From contig CAYRLX010000001.1 in the NCBI GenBank assembly GCA_964425325.1, positions 10,791 to 74,790 on the forward strand: a stretch of 64,000 nt of DNA. Reading direction: 5' to 3'. The notes under the pieces are model-generated. The model was not told the DNA's origin. It worked only from the letters and a program-made list of their open reading frames with translations, and ran no database searches. Source of the DNA: an uncultured Muribaculaceae bacterium (lineage in GTDB: Bacteria > Bacillota_I > Bacilli_A > RF39 > UBA660). A program made the translations under genes and the position numbers. Numbering within the stretch: the first letter of the stretch is position 1; every line of letters begins with the position of its first letter. Shown piece after piece: positions 7,420 to 16,956 of the stretch.

Positions 7420-7710
7420 ATGAATAGTTATAAATCGGGAGAAAGTTTTATAGATCATATATATCAAGAGTTAATAAACTCTGATGAAGTAAAAAAAGCA
7501 ATCAACAGAAGAGGAATAAATCCTAAAAACAGAGAAGAAACTGTAAAATATTATATTGAAAGAATAGAACATGCACATAATACTAGAAGAAAAATAGATA
7601 TATTAAAAAGATTCTTATTAAAAAAAGCACAATTAGAATCAAATGAATATGAATATCAAAACATAAAAGAAAAAATTAACGACATGTTTAACGATGAAAG
7701 ATATATTTAA
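7420..7710 (+). pseudogene. chimeric 96-aa ORF whose last 105 nt duplicate the 3' end of the serine-hydrolase gene 12869-14344
   Basis: nt 7606-7710 match nt 14240-14344 with 2 mismatches, encoding KRFLLKKAQLESNEYEYQNIKEKINDMFNDERYI. The N-terminal 60 aa are unrelated to the hydrolase. Confidence 0.45.
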
Positions 7711-7750
7711 AAAAAATAAATGTTATAATTAATATAGAAGGGATGATAAA

Positions 7751-8320
7751 ATGAAAAATAACGAAATGACAAGAGGAGAATTTTTAAAAGGAGTTGGAAC
7801 TGTAATCGCAGGAGTAACAGCAGGAGTGGCTGTAGATAAATTATTACATGGCGAAGTATACGTACCATATGTAAGTGATGCACTTACAGAAGACGATGAG
7901 TATGATGCAGAAGGACAAGTAATATCACTAGAAGATTTATCAAAATTTTACCTACTAGATTATAAAATACCATATGAAATATCAGGCATGGGTGAATTAT
8001 CAGGACAAACTATGAAACCCAATTTAGTAACTTTTATTGAAAAAGAAAAAGATTTATATCAAAAGATATATTTAGTTGTAAATCAAGATGAGAGTGTTTT
8101 CCACTTTAGAAGAGAAAACGGACAAAGGTATACAGAAGAAGGAGTCCAAAAATTTTATAATAATCAAAAAGAAGTATCAAGATTTATTAATATGGGAGAC
8201 TATATTAAGCAAATAGGTGCAGAAAAAGATCATTATTATGCAGAAGAAATTTATGAAATTGCAAGTAGTTATCAAAGTTGGAACTTTGACCATTCTTATG
8301 AAGAAGGAAAATCAATTTAA
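7751..8320 (+). CDS. hypothetical exported protein with a degenerate Tat-like signal (189 aa)
   Basis: N-terminus MKNNEMTRGEFLKGVGTVIAGVTAGVAV resembles the TRRGFLK signal of the 31255 gene product but has a single Arg. Confidence 0.55.
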   Translation: MKNNEMTRGEFLKGVGTVIAGVTAGVAVDKLLHGEVYVPYVSDALTEDDEYDAEGQVISLEDLSKFYLLDYKIPYEISGMGELSGQTMKPNLVTFIEKEKDLYQKIYLVVNQDESVFHFRRENGQRYTEEGVQKFYNNQKEVSRFINMGDYIKQIGAEKDHYYAEEIYEIASSYQSWNFDHSYEEGKSI

Positions 8321-8358
8321 TAAAAATAAATAATCAAAAAATATATAATATATCCAAT

Positions 8359-8387
8359 TTGACAAAAATAAGGTTTTATGATAGTAT
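8359..8387 (+). promoter_or_regulatory. sigma-A promoter with extended -10
   Basis: TTGACA (8359-8364), 17-nt spacer, TGaTAGTAT (8379-8387). Confidence 0.65.
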
Positions 8388-8390
8388 ATT

Positions 8391-8523
8391 AACTCGTCAA
8401 AGGGAGTAGCTTATATAAACTAAAAAGTTTATAGGTATAGTTCGTCAAATCAATACGAAAGTATTCGGACTATAACATAGAAATATGAAGCAAGACTTAT
8501 ACATTGTATGGTCTTGCTTTTTT
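8391..8523 (+). promoter_or_regulatory. yybP-ykoY (Mn2+)-like riboswitch with expression-platform terminator, copy 1
   Basis: - L1-like CAAAGGGAGUAGC at 8398-8410.
- P2 hairpin 8414-8420/8427-8433.
- 9-bp helix UAUAGUUCG/CGGACUAUA (8436-8444/8466-8474) enclosing UCAAAUCA plus an AUAC-GAAA-GUAU hairpin.
- CAUA-GAAA-UAUG hairpin at 8476-8487.
- Conserved AAGCAAGAC at 8488-8496, which is also the 5' arm of a 12-bp terminator (8490-8517) followed by UUUUUU.
The architecture parallels, element by element, the L. lactis Mn2+ riboswitch sequence as I recall it. Confidence 0.6.
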
Positions 8524-8564
8524 GCATATAGATCATACAAGTTGACTAGATGGAGGTGAAAAAA

Positions 8565-9062
8565 ATGAGAGAAAATAATTCAAAAGAATCTAAAATGACA
8601 GCTAAAATTACAGCAGCATATATACTTTATGCAGTTACATTAACATCTATTTATTTCACAGCACGTTGTAACCCATATGAACTAGATGAAGAAACAGATG
8701 AAAATATAATGCGCGAATATAAAGAGAGAAACTTAAAAGAAATTGAAGAAACTTTAGAACAAAGTTATGAAACAAAAATATTTGAACCAGAAGAACATAT
8801 ATTATACATGCCAGAAAGTAAAGTAAATTTACAAAGTGATGATATGGGAGATATTGAAAAAAGCAAAGTGAGTTATAGAATTATATGTCCAGAAGGGTAC
8901 GAATTATTAGGTGTTACAAATGAACATAGTGAAAATTATTATTTATTTGTAAATACTCAAACAGTAGAAGTAAAAGATGATGGAAGTGGTTCATATACAA
9001 ATTTTGGAACACCTATTGAAAAAGAAAAAAATGAAAAGACACAAAAAGTAAAAACTAAATAA
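8565..9062 (+). CDS. small membrane-anchored/secreted protein, paralogue of the 15418-15870 product
   Basis: The ORF track starts at 8550 (MEVKKM), but GGAGGTG in that stretch is a perfect SD 7 nt upstream of ATG 8565. N-terminal hydrophobic segment AAYILYAVTLTSIYFTARC. Motifs shared with the paralogue: ETK(I/V)FE, CP(E/D)GYEL, FGTPIEKEKNE.TQKVKTK. Confidence 0.7.
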   Translation: MRENNSKESKMTAKITAAYILYAVTLTSIYFTARCNPYELDEETDENIMREYKERNLKEIEETLEQSYETKIFEPEEHILYMPESKVNLQSDDMGDIEKSKVSYRIICPEGYELLGVTNEHSENYYLFVNTQTVEVKDDGSGSYTNFGTPIEKEKNEKTQKVKTK

Positions 9063-9120
9063 TGTAAAACAATTTCAAAATAAAAATAAAAAATTATAAT
9101 TAAGGAAGGAGATTAAAAAT

Positions 9121-9753
9121 ATGAAAAAAAAGATATTATTTATAATATTAACTATATTAATTATAGCAGCAGCTATAATTACATATAATACATTTAATAA
9201 GAATAATTCAATAAAAAAATATGAAAGAAAACATATCCAACTTTTATATTCTAGAATTTATTCTGGAGTTGATGTAATTATTGATAAAAAAGGAAATGCT
9301 TATTTAAAAATAATAGATTACAAAGATGACTACCCAATCAAAAAAGCAAAAAAACAAGAATTAAAAAGTCAATATAAAGAATATATAATTGAAGGATATC
9401 ATGAGGACGTAAGTGGCTGTAATAACAAAGAAAAAAAGAATATATTTGAAGGAATTAAAATTCCAGTAGAAAATGTAGTGTCAGCATATGAAATAGATAA
9501 TGGACAAGAAGAAGGCGGGAATGCCATATTATTTATCAAAAAAGATGGAACTGTCTCAGGATTTAATATTTATAATTTTATAACAAACGGATATATAAAA
9601 GTATTCGATAATATTGATGATTTAAAAGATATTGTTAGTATAGTCCAGTCAGCATCGTGCTATTATGTTTGCGGAAGTGCATCACATATAACCTATGCAA
9701 TAGATAAGCAAGGACAGTTTCATCCAATTAAAGAATCGTTTATAGAAAAATAA
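9121..9753 (+). CDS. hypothetical protein with N-terminal TM anchor (210 aa)
   Basis: RBS GGAAGGAG upstream. The KKKILFIILTILIIAAAIITY segment is a signal-anchor. Confidence 0.65.
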   Translation: MKKKILFIILTILIIAAAIITYNTFNKNNSIKKYERKHIQLLYSRIYSGVDVIIDKKGNAYLKIIDYKDDYPIKKAKKQELKSQYKEYIIEGYHEDVSGCNNKEKKNIFEGIKIPVENVVSAYEIDNGQEEGGNAILFIKKDGTVSGFNIYNFITNGYIKVFDNIDDLKDIVSIVQSASCYYVCGSASHITYAIDKQGQFHPIKESFIEK

Positions 9754-10716: not shown

Positions 10717-10744
10717 TTGACAAAACAATTATTTAAGATATAAT
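10717..10744 (+). promoter_or_regulatory. member of the AATTTGACAA promoter/leader family
   Basis: CAATTTGACAAAAC contains TTGACA (10717-10722); 16-nt spacer; TATAAT (10739-10744). A short UCCC/GGGG anti-SD/SD pairing follows, just before ATG 10768. Confidence 0.55.
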
Positions 10745-12868: not shown

Positions 12869-14344
12869 ATGGTAGACAACTATACAAGCCTTTTAAGAGA
12901 AACATGGGATGAGTTATTTAATGAGTTAGATACATTAGATCAAAAAAGCAATTATGAAAGTATATACAAGGAAACTATAAATGATCTAATGGATAATGAT
13001 AAAGAAAATTATCAAACAATCTTTGAAGCACTTATTGATGATTACCTAAAAGACGTTAAAGCCATTGCTAAAATGTCGCCAGGGTTGGCAACAGGACTAA
13101 AAGATATTAAAGACAATATTACATTAAATATATATACTGGATATACTTCAGATAAAAGTATTGCACAGAAGATAACAAAAAACACATTATTCGATATTGC
13201 AAGCATAACTAAACTTTTTACCGCACTTTTACTACTTAAAGAAGAGGAAAAAGAAAATATAAATTTAAAAAAATGTTATTCAGATTATTCAGATAAACTA
13301 ATCAATATAGATGTACCAATCATAGATGCATTAAGATTTGGAGTGGAAATAAGAACGCCTGGTAGAATAGATGAAGATAATATAAGCGTTGAAGAGAGAA
13401 TGCTCAGATTTGAAAAAGCCTATGTTTATAAAAGAAATACATTTATTTATAGTGACGTTCCATACATGCTAACATTAATGCTTTTCGGAAATAATGAAAT
13501 AGATGCAAACATAAATTATATAAAAAAATTCTATGAAACATTTAAAAACATAGGACTAAATAATACAGGATATTTTACAAATCAAAAAACAGGTGGACTA
13601 TTAAGCATATCCTCAGATGAAAAAGTTGAAATATTTGATCCAAAAGCACGAAAATTTGAATTTGAAAATGGTTTTATTTTAGGTCATGCCGGAGTAACAA
13701 CAACAGTAGAAGACATTCAAAAACTTTTTGTAAACTTAAATAATGGATTTTTATCAAAAAAATCTATAGAAAAACTAATAACTCCAATTACAAATGATAA
13801 ATATTTGTTAGATCAAAATGGAAGTCCAGTGATTAGAAAAGACAAAAAAGTATTAATTAATAGAGGTATGGCAGTATATTTAAACATAGGTGATATAAGA
13901 AAATGTGATATAGCTAAAGGATATTCCAAAAAAGCATTCGCATCCGCAGGATCTACAGGAACATATACAATATTTGATTTAGAAAATGGATTTAATACAA
14001 TTTTTTTATCAAATATAAAAACAACATCATATTCAAAAACCTTTTTCACGGATAATTATATATATGGAGATGAAAAATATCACTTACCAAAATTTTATAA
14101 AACAACACTTATCGCAGGCACAGGAACTAAGAGAGATGGAAAAATAGTTAAACCTGATGGAAGTGAAATGAATTATTCTAAAGCAACAAATCACTTTAAA
14201 GAAGAACAATTTAAAACATTACTCAAACTTAGATTAGCCAAAAGATTCTTGTTAAAAAAAGCACAATTAGAATCAAATGAATATGAATATCAAAACATAA
14301 AAGAAAAAATTAACGACGTGTTTAACGATGAAAGATATATTTAA
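12869..14344 (+). CDS. serine hydrolase, beta-lactamase/PBP4*-like family (491 aa), tandem paralogue
   Basis: FDIASITKLFTALLLL (SxxK), GHAGVTTT, GSTGTY. Collinear similarity with the 11241-12803 product throughout. Confidence 0.7.
   Translation: MVDNYTSLLRETWDELFNELDTLDQKSNYESIYKETINDLMDNDKENYQTIFEALIDDYLKDVKAIAKMSPGLATGLKDIKDNITLNIYTGYTSDKSIAQKITKNTLFDIASITKLFTALLLLKEEEKENINLKKCYSDYSDKLINIDVPIIDALRFGVEIRTPGRIDEDNISVEERMLRFEKAYVYKRNTFIYSDVPYMLTLMLFGNNEIDANINYIKKFYETFKNIGLNNTGYFTNQKTGGLLSISSDEKVEIFDPKARKFEFENGFILGHAGVTTTVEDIQKLFVNLNNGFLSKKSIEKLITPITNDKYLLDQNGSPVIRKDKKVLINRGMAVYLNIGDIRKCDIAKGYSKKAFASAGSTGTYTIFDLENGFNTIFLSNIKTTSYSKTFFTDNYIYGDEKYHLPKFYKTTLIAGTGTKRDGKIVKPDGSEMNYSKATNHFKEEQFKTLLKLRLAKRFLLKKAQLESNEYEYQNIKEKINDVFNDERYI
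14240..14344 (+). repeat. 105-bp repeat, second copy of 7606-7710 (2 mismatches)
   Basis: Direct comparison of the two DNA stretches. Confidence 0.85.
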
Positions 14345-14378
14345 TAAGAAATTATATACACATAAGTAGGAGAATAGT

Positions 14379-15014
14379 ATGAATATTTTAAAAGATGAAA
14401 ATAATAACTATATAAAAGATACAAGTCCATATGAAAAATTTAAAAGAATAGACAATGATATTATTTCATTTTATATGAAATATAATCAATTAAAAAATCT
14501 ATATAGACAAGGGTGGCTAAAAGTGCGAATTGGCTTAGAACACAAAGAAAAATGTGAATCAGTTGCTGATCATTCATTTTCAGTCGCACTGCTATCTTTA
14601 ACAATAATAGAAAAAGAAAAACTACCACTAGATGCATTCAAATGTATAAAAATGGGGATTATACACGAACTAGGTGAGATATATGCAGGAGACTATACTC
14701 CGTATGATAATATAACAAAAGAAGAAAAACATATTAAAGAAAAAGAAGCTATAATAAAAGTATTGAATACTTTAGATAAAGAAAATGATTTTTTAGAATT
14801 ATGGGAAGAATTTGAAATAGGAAAAACGGAAGAAGCTAAATTTATTAAAAGTGTGGATCAATTAGAATTTTTATTACAAGCGTGTGCATACGGTTATGAT
14901 GCAAAATATTTTAAAAAGTGCATAGAAAAAATTGATAATTATTATTGTAAAAAAATAGCTAAAGCAGCTATTATAAGTACAAATGGAAATAAAAAGCCAA
15001 AAATAGTAGATTAA
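14379..15014 (+). CDS. HD-domain hydrolase (YfbR-like 5'-deoxynucleotidase family)
   Basis: ESVADHSFSVALL ... IHELGEIYAGDYTP ... SVDQLEF gives the H..HD..D pattern of HD phosphohydrolases of the YfbR type. Confidence 0.65.
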   Translation: MNILKDENNNYIKDTSPYEKFKRIDNDIISFYMKYNQLKNLYRQGWLKVRIGLEHKEKCESVADHSFSVALLSLTIIEKEKLPLDAFKCIKMGIIHELGEIYAGDYTPYDNITKEEKHIKEKEAIIKVLNTLDKENDFLELWEEFEIGKTEEAKFIKSVDQLEFLLQACAYGYDAKYFKKCIEKIDNYYCKKIAKAAIISTNGNKKPKIVD

Positions 15015-15211
15015 AAAAATAGTGAGAAAAATAGATGATGAAAACATATAATAGAAAAAACACATTTTAAATTATAATAGTAGACATAGTATTAGGAAGT
15101 AGAAAAGAACATACATGATATTCAAAAGTAGATATAATAATATATTAGCTTAATTTAAGATAAAGATCATCTAAAGTTAATGGGACTAATTCTTATTTTA
15201 AAAAGCCCAAT

Positions 15212-15240
15212 TTGACAAAAATAAGGTTTTATGATAGTAT
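15212..15240 (+). promoter_or_regulatory. sigma-A promoter with extended -10 (copy 2)
   Basis: TTGACA 15212-15217 and TGaTAGTAT 15232-15240, identical to copy 1. Confidence 0.65.
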
Positions 15241-15243
15241 ATT

Positions 15244-15376
15244 AACTCGTCAAAGGGAGTAGCTTATATAAACTAAAAAGTTTATAGGTATAGTTCGTCA
15301 AATCAATACGAAAGTATTCGGACTATAACATAGAAATATGAAGCAAGACTTATACATTGTATGGTCTTGCTTTTTT
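15244..15376 (+). promoter_or_regulatory. yybP-ykoY (Mn2+)-like riboswitch with terminator, copy 2
   Basis: Identical in sequence to 8391-8523 (offset +6853). Confidence 0.6.
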
Positions 15377-15417
15377 GCATATAGATCATACAAGTTGACT
15401 AGATGGAGGTGAAAAAA

Positions 15418-15870
15418 ATGAATAAAGAAGTGATCAAAAATTTAAAAGTATTCGCACTATCGACTCTTTTAACCAGTAGTATTGTACTATCAGGATGTAG
15501 TTCAAATAAGCCACTAAGTGATTATACTGATGAAGAAATAAAAGAAGAATATGAAAGACGTAGTGAAGAAACAAATCAAACATTAGAAGATAAAAGAGAA
15601 ACAAAAGTATTTGAGACAGGGCAGCACGTTATAGAAATTGTACAATTATATGATTCAATTAATTTAAAAAGAAGAATTGAATGCCCAGATGGATATGAGT
15701 TAATTTCAACATGGAGTTATAGCATAAATGATAATACGCATTTTGGCTATATTTTCTGTAATACATTACCAGTAGAGGCAAAGTTAGATGAAAATGGAGA
15801 ATATACAAAATTTGGAACACCTATTGAAAAAGAAAAAAATGAAAATACACAAAAAGTAAAAACTAAATGA
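15418..15870 (+). CDS. small lipoprotein, paralogue of the 8565-9062 product
   Basis: Start moved from 15403 to ATG 15418 (the SD GGAGGTG lies inside the longer ORF). Signal peptide with lipobox: KVFALSTLLTSSIVLSGC. The C-terminus FGTPIEKEKNENTQKVKTK is shared with the paralogue. Confidence 0.75.
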   Translation: MNKEVIKNLKVFALSTLLTSSIVLSGCSSNKPLSDYTDEEIKEEYERRSEETNQTLEDKRETKVFETGQHVIEIVQLYDSINLKRRIECPDGYELISTWSYSINDNTHFGYIFCNTLPVEAKLDENGEYTKFGTPIEKEKNENTQKVKTK

Positions 15871-15957
15871 TGTAAAACAATGTCAAAATAAAGCTAAAAG
15901 ACTTTAATTATATGTATTATTATAATATAATCAAATTAAGAAGAGGAGTGATTTAAC

Positions 15958-16860
15958 ATGAGCGAATTTAAAAAAGTAAATATAATAGAATACGTAAAAG
16001 AAGGATTAGAAAATGGTAAATTAGTACCAATTCAAGCAAAAAAAACTGCACCAACTCATTTAGTTCCAGGTACATTAGGAGAGGAAGTTATCTCATGGGT
16101 TGAAAATAAGGACGGGACTTCAAGAATAGAAAGAGAAGAAAAAGTAGAAAAAGATTCAGAAACTGAACAGCCAGGATGGATAGCAACAAAAGTTGATTCA
16201 AACGGAAATCCAGTAATCGATGGAAACGGTCATAAAAATCAGTGGATAATTAAAGACTCATTTTTCAGAGCCAATTATGAGCCTTCAAAAGTAGGTGATA
16301 ATTTATATCAGAAAAAAGCTGTTCAGACACTAGTACAAATACCAGACAATATTGAATTTGAAAATAAAAAAGGTAAAGTAATGACAGTTGAAGCCGGAGG
16401 ATACATAAATATTACAGATTTATCAAATATGCATGGAATATCAGAAAGAGACTTTAATGACACTCATGAACTTGCACATACTGTAAGTCTTGATAATGGT
16501 GAATTTGTTGTTATAACTGAGAAAGATGGAACTATTACAGTAGGGCTAAAGAATGCTTTAAGAGCTGCTGACTATGAGAATTTACTTGGAACTTTAAACA
16601 TTCCAGAAGGAACAATAATTAATACACCAATATTACTACCATCAAAGCCAAACCAAGAAGGACAAAGTAATCAAAACATTAATGGTAATCTTACAATTAG
16701 TACAGAAGATGGTGTTAATTATGTAATAGTTGGTAATAGTGTAAGCAATATAATTGTTTATGATTCAATGAGAAAACAACTTGAAGAGGTTGCTGATAAG
16801 TCAGAAAATGGATTAATAGAGCATCAAATATCAGAGCCATTACCAAAAAGACACAGATAA
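15958..16860 (+). CDS. hypothetical protein (300 aa)
   Basis: RBS AGAGGAG upstream, followed by a terminator. No recognisable motif. Confidence 0.6.
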   Translation: MSEFKKVNIIEYVKEGLENGKLVPIQAKKTAPTHLVPGTLGEEVISWVENKDGTSRIEREEKVEKDSETEQPGWIATKVDSNGNPVIDGNGHKNQWIIKDSFFRANYEPSKVGDNLYQKKAVQTLVQIPDNIEFENKKGKVMTVEAGGYINITDLSNMHGISERDFNDTHELAHTVSLDNGEFVVITEKDGTITVGLKNALRAADYENLLGTLNIPEGTIINTPILLPSKPNQEGQSNQNINGNLTISTEDGVNYVIVGNSVSNIIVYDSMRKQLEEVADKSENGLIEHQISEPLPKRHR

Positions 16861-16891
16861 AATTATATAAAACATAAGCATAAATAATAAA

Positions 16892-16919
16892 AAAGGCAAC
16901 ATATTTAATTGTTGCCTTT
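16892..16919 (+). terminator. probable Rho-independent terminator
   Basis: AAAGGCAAC / GTTGCCTTT stem with a 10-nt loop. The T-tract is short. Confidence 0.5.
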
Positions 16920-16956
16920 CACTCTATAATTATAAGATAAAAATTAAGGAGAGTAT

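Follow-up and report, generated by a model that had tools for sequence, protein, structure and literature searches.

A probable Mn2+ riboswitch of the yybP-ykoY type, present in two identical copies, precedes an unannotated family of small lipoproteins in a low-GC Bacillota genome

In a 64,000-nucleotide (nt) stretch of DNA from an uncultured bacterium (assembly GCA_964425325.1, contig CAYRLX010000001.1, positions 10,791 to 74,790; GTDB lineage Bacillota_I; Bacilli_A; RF39; UBA660; the whole stretch is called the window here), two genes for small extracytoplasmic proteins are each preceded by the same 215-nt leader, which raises the question of what this leader is and why it stands in front of these genes. 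The two copies form an exact direct repeat (8354-8568 and 15207-15421, 100% identity), as a reading of the sequence alone had claimed, while the coding sequences downstream share 40% amino-acid identity and the DNA flanking the modules is only ~40-60% identical between the two loci; the module is thus far better conserved than its surroundings. We propose, with a probability of roughly 80%, that both copies are complete ON-riboswitches that act on transcription and belong to the yybP-ykoY (Mn2+) family, in the form with a four-way junction represented by yoaB of Lactococcus lactis. The same assignment had been made in the sequence-only reading, and it is supported here by canonical nucleotides at the metal site and at the docking contacts, by a four-helix architecture whose overlap with a terminator is the same as in more than 100 riboswitches of Bacillota, and by covariance models that pick exactly these two sites.

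Riboswitches of this family consist of two coaxial legs, P1.1-L1-P1.2-P2 and P3.1-L3-P3.2-P4, joined by a four- or three-way junction, with the switch helix P1.1 competing with the expression platform (PMC12153347, PMC6649816, PMC9190785); P4 is optional, and both junction forms exist (PMC6649816). The leader in the window shows all of these parts (Table 1). It follows a consensus promoter, anticipated in the sequence-only reading and composed of TTGACA (8359-8364), a 17-nt spacer and TAGTAT (8382-8387) with an extended -10 TG (8379-8380), from which transcription would start near 8391-8395, a few nucleotides 5' of P1.1. The minimum free energy (MFE) of the leader is -37 kcal/mol (z = -5.05 against 200 shuffles, 0 of 200 of which fold as well), and the MFE and constrained folds contain P2, P3.1, P3.2 and P4, with the junction closed by P1.2 and P1.1. 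All the elements described earlier were recovered, including the 9-base-pair (bp) helix P3.1 and the hairpin CAUA-GAAA-UAUG, now P4. Two of them had to be redrawn: the P2 hairpin is present with 8 bp, not 7 bp, and the element enclosed by P3.1, described as an 8-nt loop with a 4-bp hairpin, is better read as the 7-nt bulge UCAAAUC followed by the 5-bp hairpin AAUAC-GAAA-GUAUU. The supposed deviation of L1, one G fewer in CAAAGGGAGUAGC (present at 8398-8410), turned out to lie outside L1, as it reflects a pair of P1.1 that is A-U here and not G-C, a form very common in Clostridia. P1.1 itself consists of 3 bp beside L1, then a 2x2 mismatch, then 2 bp.

The nucleotides that define the ligand site are of particular interest. 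In the family, the 5' end of L1 is highly conserved and its 3' side comprises a variable nucleotide followed by an invariable AGA, and the C-G receptor pair of P3.1 takes an A-minor contact from L1 (PMC6649816; for the receptor pair also PMC12153347). In the window both receptor pairs, C8443-G8467 and G8444-C8466, are present beside L3, and the 7-nt bulge of L3 has 0 unpaired nucleotides opposite it. L3 of the family carries an invariant C and a Mn-coordinating A, and the metal site of L. lactis is formed by G9, U39, C40, A41, U44 and C45 (PMC9190785). The U, C and A at positions 1-3 and the U and C at positions 6-7 of L3 in the window match U39, C40, A41, U44 and C45, respectively, and by this alignment A8447 corresponds to the Mn-coordinating A41. 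It could be argued that a fold of this kind serves another or an additional effector, such as pH or a different divalent cation like Ca2+, given that the mgtA member of Streptococcus pneumoniae controls an Mn2+/Ca2+ ATPase, that alx of Escherichia coli couples Mn2+ sensing to alkaline pH (PMC6649816, PMC12153347) and that the genes downstream in the window give no clue to the ligand. We consider this quite improbable, since the window retains the adenosine through whose N7 the aptamer selects Mn2+, its L3 is as long as that of L. lactis and the positions equivalent to the metal site are conserved (PMC9190785).

The way in which such an aptamer could control transcription is apparent from its 3' end. 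The element AAGCAAGAC, at 8488-8496, doubles as the 5' arm of the terminator, as noted before; in this arm, AAGCAAGACU, the 3' strands of P1.2, L1 and P1.1 are used a second time, and the terminator shares 10 nt (8488-8497) with the aptamer 3' strand, a layout found in many of the control riboswitches described below. Because the arm is common to both structures, aptamer and terminator are mutually exclusive. The terminator state is calculated at -31.9 kcal/mol and the aptamer state at -19.6 kcal/mol. With the terminator state the more stable one and with P1 weak, the default state should be OFF, and docking stabilised by the ligand would switch it ON. In the mechanism that we envisage, transcription would begin a few nucleotides 5' of P1.1 and the nascent RNA would fold into the two legs. 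At high cytoplasmic Mn2+, L1 (GGAGUA/AAGA) would dock on L3 (UCAAAUC) around the metal, with N7 of A8447 as the Mn-specific ligand, and docking would keep the 3' strand AAGC-AAGA-CUU in the aptamer, so that the terminator is blocked and RNA polymerase enters the operon. At low Mn2+, the weak P1 (about -3 kcal/mol) would lose to the terminator (-14 kcal/mol) and transcription would stop at the U-tract. The paralogous proteins encoded first in the two operons, membrane-anchored or lipidated, would accordingly be made at high Mn2+. The sequence, the fold, family membership by model score and the exclusion between aptamer and terminator are shown here, and Mn2+ binding, the direction of control, the start of transcription and the limits of the operons are inferred.

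For comparison with the family at large, control loci were collected by scanning genomes for the conserved strands AAAGGGAGTAGC N{60,90} AGCAAGAC. The scan returned at least 119 loci, nearly all from Bacillota, where ~34 were expected by chance; by our own calculation, the anchors AAAGGGAGUAGC...AGCAAGAC at the spacing seen in the window are expected ~4e-6 times per 64-kb window. The control loci have one common architecture. The first open reading frames (ORFs) downstream, surveyed at 114 of them, encode 47 P-type ATPases, 23 OAD_beta, 11 Band_7 and 10 Na/Ca exchanger proteins, and P-type ATPases are documented targets of yybP-ykoY riboswitches in L. lactis and S. pneumoniae (PMC8632737, PMC6649816). 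Using 88 natural control sequences and 16 hand-placed pairs, a covariance model of the whole aptamer, R1, was built. Its pairs form in register in 90.8% of cases, compared with 26-49% when the 3' partners are shifted, and 118 cells changed on both sides, compared with 54.6 in shuffles; the covarying helices are P1.1, P1.2, P3.1 and P3.2, and the fourth pair of P1.2 occurs as GU, UA, AU, GC and CG. Among these sequences L1 reads GGAGUA in all 88, an identity imposed by the search pattern. The receptor pairs, in the 45 controls aligned over P3, are CG in 44/45 and GC in 44/45. Control L3 loops read UCAnnnC, and that of L. lactis reads UCAAUUC in full. An RNAalifold structure on the MAFFT alignment A1, which recovered P1.1 alone with the variable hairpins misaligned, was discarded and replaced by the hand-set 16-bp structure and then by a parsed alignment of P3.

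In the window R1 gave only two matches, each at 41.2 bits and E 3.5e-8, the one at copy 2 spanning 15247-15358. Over 777 kb of control loci the true sites scored 36.8-83.4 bits and the best background 17.4 bits; a subclass of ~24 loci on which the model had not been trained reached 42-47 bits, and locus L055, which contains both anchors apparently by chance, gave no match. R1 is narrow in scope: the mntP leader of E. coli escapes it.

Several observations weigh against the assignment and have to be set beside these results. R1 is partly circular, as its training set was gathered with a pattern taken from this very leader. To remove this circularity, a second model, R2, was built from the P3.1-L3-P3.2 domain only (45 sequences, 10 pairs), a region untouched by the search pattern; with filters off, it found only 8439-8471 and 15292-15324 in the window (23.1 bits, E 1.9e-4), the next match scoring 8.8 bits. 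The training sequences of R2 were in turn chosen by a parse that requires pairing, so that its pair statistics (94.6% pairing in register) are inflated, although the result of the search on the window is unaffected by this. In addition, the R1 score of the window is low within the range of the family, P1.1 is unusually weak where the AAAAG/CUUUU of the controls is nearly invariant, the contribution of P1 is no more than about -2.8 kcal/mol, no link between the controlled genes and Mn is known, and the Rfam model RF00080 finds no match even at E<=10 on 8300-8620 (321 nt, lax filters).

Part of this list can be accommodated by a different history, in which the leader is a decaying or detuned descendant of a yybP-ykoY riboswitch. 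Its weakened P1.1 would no longer compete, leaving a constitutive attenuator or a source of ~130-nt terminated RNA whose read-through is not set by Mn2+. The mismatches in P1.1 do fall where the controls are A-U in 87/88 and paired in 84/88, and both the imbalance between P1 (about -2.8 kcal/mol) and terminator (-14.2 kcal/mol) and the R1 score near the bottom of the range are in line with such decay. Nevertheless, we regard it as unlikely. Decay would accumulate changes at the ligand-site and docking nucleotides of L1 and L3, all of which are intact; the two copies are 100% identical; a control riboswitch 5' of a P-type ATPase (L025) has a similar P1.1, CUUAUG, with a mismatch; and the aptamer core is kept in the relatives from other samples, L126 (43.5 bits) and L125 (cut at the contig edge). 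The changes in these two relatives are in the loops of P2 and P3.2, with loop changes only in P3.2, together with one compensatory change in P2 (C8420-G8427 to U-A in L126) and two changes in P3.1, and the rest from L3 to the ribosome-binding site is unchanged. An intact Mn2+ ON-switch with a weak P1.1 is therefore the reading that we prefer.

The search with RF00080 deserves separate comment, as it had been put forward as a check, with a score below threshold named among the refuting conditions. RF00080 (Rfam 15) gave no match at its gathering threshold on the whole 64-kb window, which, read literally, would count as a refutation. The same model missed 36/36 control loci at threshold, and even on the best control, L080, it was absent at E<=10. 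These 36 are Bacillota and other loci with all hallmarks of Mn2+ riboswitches, many of them 5' of P-type ATPases. Even the experimentally validated mntP leader of E. coli (tested on L005 1462-1558) reached only 41.6 bits against the 45-bit cut-off, and the alignment with mntP shows that the model, of 177 positions, lacks the P1 3' strand. Since all 36 controls were missed as well, the negative result has no power for this type of aptamer, and we read the check as uninformative. It also follows that annotation pipelines relying on Rfam 15 RF00080 will under-call Mn2+ riboswitches of the Firmicute type. The failure of Rfam to assign the leader to a family could be taken to mean that this is no riboswitch at all, but a leader under the control of a protein or a leader peptide that resembles yybP-ykoY by chance. 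Keeping in mind that the anchors alone are expected so rarely by chance, that the interior model R2 finds only these two sites and that the full architecture matches over 100 riboswitches of the family, we consider such a coincidence highly improbable. A literature search for the aptamer sequence string returned nothing relevant.

The control set yielded some observations in its own right. A subclass of aptamers from AT-rich Clostridia, nearly always 5' of ~900-amino-acid (aa) P-type ATPases, apparently lacks P2, and its P3 reads UUACUAAUCAACAGUCGCG...CUGGUUAGUAA, resembling the L3 of the E. coli type (GUCAACA...UGG); it comprises L023, L026, L031, L040, L046, L050, L061, L063, L068, L069, L071, L076, L077, L081, L093, L094, L096, L097, L104, L105, L108, L116, L117 and L122, and is the untrained subclass to which R1 gives 42-47 bits. 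About 10 control riboswitches (L007, L012, L017, L024, L057, L092, L110, L115 and L124) precede a protein of ~140-155 aa that starts MSNE..K.E..EA..AGERAL.SL...KL.SA.NWG..D..GGGF; these ORFs are not among the Pfam matches at E<=1e-5 in the census of downstream ORFs, and their products are candidates for a further Mn-regulated gene. In Radiobacillus sp. (L079 6190-6639), a Bacillaceae Mn-type riboswitch (R1 36.8 bits) stands 5' of a 150-aa membrane protein with DUF5392, which is not a transporter.

What, then, do the two copies in the window control? The sequence-only reading had stated that the targets are small extracytoplasmic proteins and not transporters, and this is borne out: the first gene of each operon encodes a protein of 165 aa and of 150 aa, respectively, the latter with the lipobox LSGC, and neither has a significant match in Pfam or NCBIfam, the only Pfam signal being Phytochelatin_C at 17.2 bits, below the 25-bit cut-off. 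The two proteins are paralogous (40% identity, E 9e-30), and the product of the copy 2 gene matches the family profile at 5e-38. In each operon a second gene is probably co-transcribed with the first. At copy 1 the 58-nt gap between the two genes contains no terminator-like site; at copy 2 a terminator-like hairpin (16891-16920) lies 3' of the second gene. Between the two operons these second genes are unrelated, and their products match no Pfam or NCBIfam family.

A word-indexed protein search with the 165-aa protein returned only the protein itself; the family came to light when 1.8 billion representative proteins were searched exhaustively with a profile, which gave 49 relatives at E<=1e-3. 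Lipoproteins of 135-170 aa that carry an L-x-G-C lipobox make up most of these, and the family is marked by the motifs K-x-F-E-P-G-E-H-I, P-x-G-Y-E, Y-x-N-T-x-P-V-E and F-G-T-P-x-E together with an invariant His; a Pfam scan of the 49 members found no Pfam family that covers them. The AlphaFold model of the 165-aa protein has a mean predicted local distance difference test score (pLDDT) of 79.7, with values >90 over most of residues 70-150, a beta-rich domain, and a Foldseek search of this model against the PDB returned nothing below E 0.7.

The riboswitch and the lipoprotein family coincide within narrow limits. The window holds just two family members, both with the leader. Of the homologue loci from other samples, the two closest, P0051 and P0002, carry it too, which answers in part the question, raised before, of whether homologues elsewhere share the leader; most relatives do not, and it was absent from five more distant loci (P0050, P0054, P0059, P0064 and P0066). 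No member of the family was found near any control riboswitch locus, and a search of metagenome contigs for related loci (alignment A6) gave 494 pattern matches with 0 confirmed. Since only the closest relatives carry the leader, we take the link between riboswitch and lipoprotein to be genuine but limited to a single lineage. In one contig from another sample (L126 164-1108, minus strand), a gene for an rve-family integrase/transposase lies directly 5' of the riboswitch-lipoprotein unit.

The last question is how two divergent genes came to share an identical leader. Block duplication of both loci was considered and rejected, since the genes flanking the modules are not paralogous between the loci. 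A BLASTN search of plasmid and phage collections with the module gave no match. The sole exception among the flanks is a C-terminal fragment of a beta-lactamase-family gene: the last 47 aa of a 96-aa ORF (7420-7710) are 77% identical to the C-terminus of a 491-aa beta-lactamase-family protein (12869-14344), with 96% DNA identity over 111 nt between 7606-7716 and 14240-14350. This ORF looks like a duplicated fragment of the beta-lactamase-family gene, and it lies 5' of riboswitch copy 1, as the intact gene lies 5' of copy 2.

Within the repeated units themselves identity is unevenly distributed. The leader is 100% identical and the 5' two-thirds of the lipoprotein genes are ~50-60% DNA-identical, while the 3' ends of the genes with ~40 nt beyond (8952-9102 and 15760-15910) again reach 84-96%. 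This mosaic suggests gene conversion between the two loci. Three independent metagenome contigs bearing these lipoprotein genes, L002 (1-78), L004 (1-78) and L125 (1-80), all start at nearly the same point of the leader, just 3' of P2. Assemblies would be expected to break off there if the leader occurs in several copies, and the cassette is therefore probably present more than once in those genomes as well. As a tentative suggestion, which we would put at no more than possible, these lipoproteins may form an unrecognised, lineage-restricted class of Mn2+-induced extracytoplasmic proteins analogous to YybP of Bacillus subtilis, acting, for instance, in Mn2+ binding or metalation at the surface of the membrane, with the 215-nt cassette spread between paralogous loci by gene conversion.

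Table 1. Positions of the leader elements and controlled genes in the window (sub-elements of copy 2 lie at copy 1 coordinates + 6853).
Feature	Position	Strand	Description
Module copy 1	8354..8568	+	Starts 5 nt 5' of the -35 box, ends 1 nt past the start codon
Sigma-70-type promoter	8359..8387	+	Consensus scan, 10/12 matches plus TG
P1.1 5' strand	8396..8402	+	GUCAAAG, switch helix; pairs with CUUAUAC (8496-8502)
L1 5' side	8403..8408	+	GGAGUA, docking/metal-site loop with A-minor adenosine
P1.2 5' strand	8409..8412	+	GCUU; pairs with AAGC (8488-8491), 4 bp
P2 hairpin	8414..8433	+	UAUAAACU, AAAA loop, AGUUUAUA; 8 bp
P3.1 5' strand	8436..8444	+	UAUAGUUCG, ending in the C-G/G-C receptor pairs; 9 bp with 8466-8474
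L3	8445..8451	+	UCAAAUC, 7-nt asymmetric bulge, predicted Mn2+ site
P3.2 hairpin	8452..8465	+	AAUAC-GAAA-GUAUU, 5 bp
P3.1 3' strand	8466..8474	+	CGGACUAUA
P4 hairpin	8476..8487	+	CAUA-GAAA-UAUG
Aptamer 3' strand	8488..8502	+	P1.2 AAGC, L1 3' side AAGA (8492-8495), P1.1 CUUAUAC
Intrinsic terminator	8488..8523	+	5' arm AAGCAAGACU, U6 tract at end; hairpin -14.2 kcal/mol
Ribosome-binding site	8552..8558	+	GGAGGUG, 6 nt 5' of the ATG at 8565; read from sequence
First controlled gene, copy 1	8565..9062	+	165 aa, membrane-anchored member of the small-lipoprotein family
Probable co-transcribed second gene, copy 1	9121..9753	+	210 aa, N-terminal membrane anchor, no family match
Module copy 2	15207..15421	+	
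Aptamer, copy 2	15249..15355	+	
L3, copy 2	15298..15304	+	
Terminator, copy 2	15341..15376	+	
Controlled gene, copy 2	15418..15870	+	150-aa lipoprotein, lipobox LSGC
Probable co-transcribed second gene, copy 2	15958..16860	+	300 aa, no family match

The DNA of the window is chromosomal and comes from a low-GC (~26%) member of the Bacillota; it encodes PNPase, FtsK, UvrA, CysRS, ThrRS and a protein with a DnaB_2 domain. Between the two riboswitch operons lie tandem genes of the beta-lactamase family (PF00144; 11241-12803 and 12869-14344), followed by an HD-domain gene (14379-15014), and a promoter-like site of perfect consensus (TTGACA, 16-nt spacer, TATAAT) is located at 10717-10744. Two adjacent tRNA genes are present on the minus strand at 1856-1937 and 1943-2016 (Rfam tRNA, 58.5 and 71.1 bits).

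Compared with known systems, the element itself is a new member of a known riboswitch family and would be a standard Mn2+ ON-switch, and what is new is its regulon, an unannotated family of small lipoproteins. With the Bacillota controls (L006-L124) it shares identical L1 strands, P1.2, the organisation of P3.1-L3-P3.2 and the terminator layout; it differs from them in that they mostly have a strong AAAAG/CUUUU P1.1, that many are three-way junctions with a UNAAA-like linker instead of P4, and that they have no member of the lipoprotein family nearby. The likeness to the yoaB riboswitch of L. lactis (4Y1I; RF00080) extends to the four-way junction with two coaxial legs, an L1 built from GGAGUA (5' side) and the invariant AGA (3' side), a 7-nt L3, a GAAA-capped P3.2, the C-G/G-C pairs closing P3.1, and an ON-switch at the level of transcription, with terminator and aptamer as rivals for the 3' strand of P1. 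In contrast to yoaB, the window has a far weaker P1.1 that contains a 2x2 mismatch, a terminator that reaches into P1.2 and L1 besides P1.1, and as target a small lipoprotein gene instead of one for a P-type ATPase.

With regard to the target, the closest parallel is yybP of B. subtilis, from which the family takes half its name and where an Mn2+ riboswitch of the family likewise lies directly 5' of the gene for an extracytoplasmic, non-transporter lipoprotein of ~150 aa; YybP, a 148-aa lipoprotein (DUF6376), is required for biofilm formation, and its function is unknown (PMC13598126). Given this precedent, and with most relatives of the window lipoproteins lacking the leader, the suggestion of a new class of Mn2+-responsive extracytoplasmic proteins, made in the sequence-only reading, was overstated. 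The window lipoproteins and YybP appear to be unrelated in sequence when compared by way of the DUF6376 profile, which found neither window protein at E<=10 and 0/49 members of the family at E<=0.01. The riboswitch thus provides a functional label: it points to probable induction by Mn2+, in a single low-GC lineage of Bacillota, of a lipoprotein family with neither Pfam entry nor fold match. Since the role of YybP is still unknown, a second, unrelated lipoprotein under the same switch could help to reveal the extracytoplasmic response to high Mn2+.

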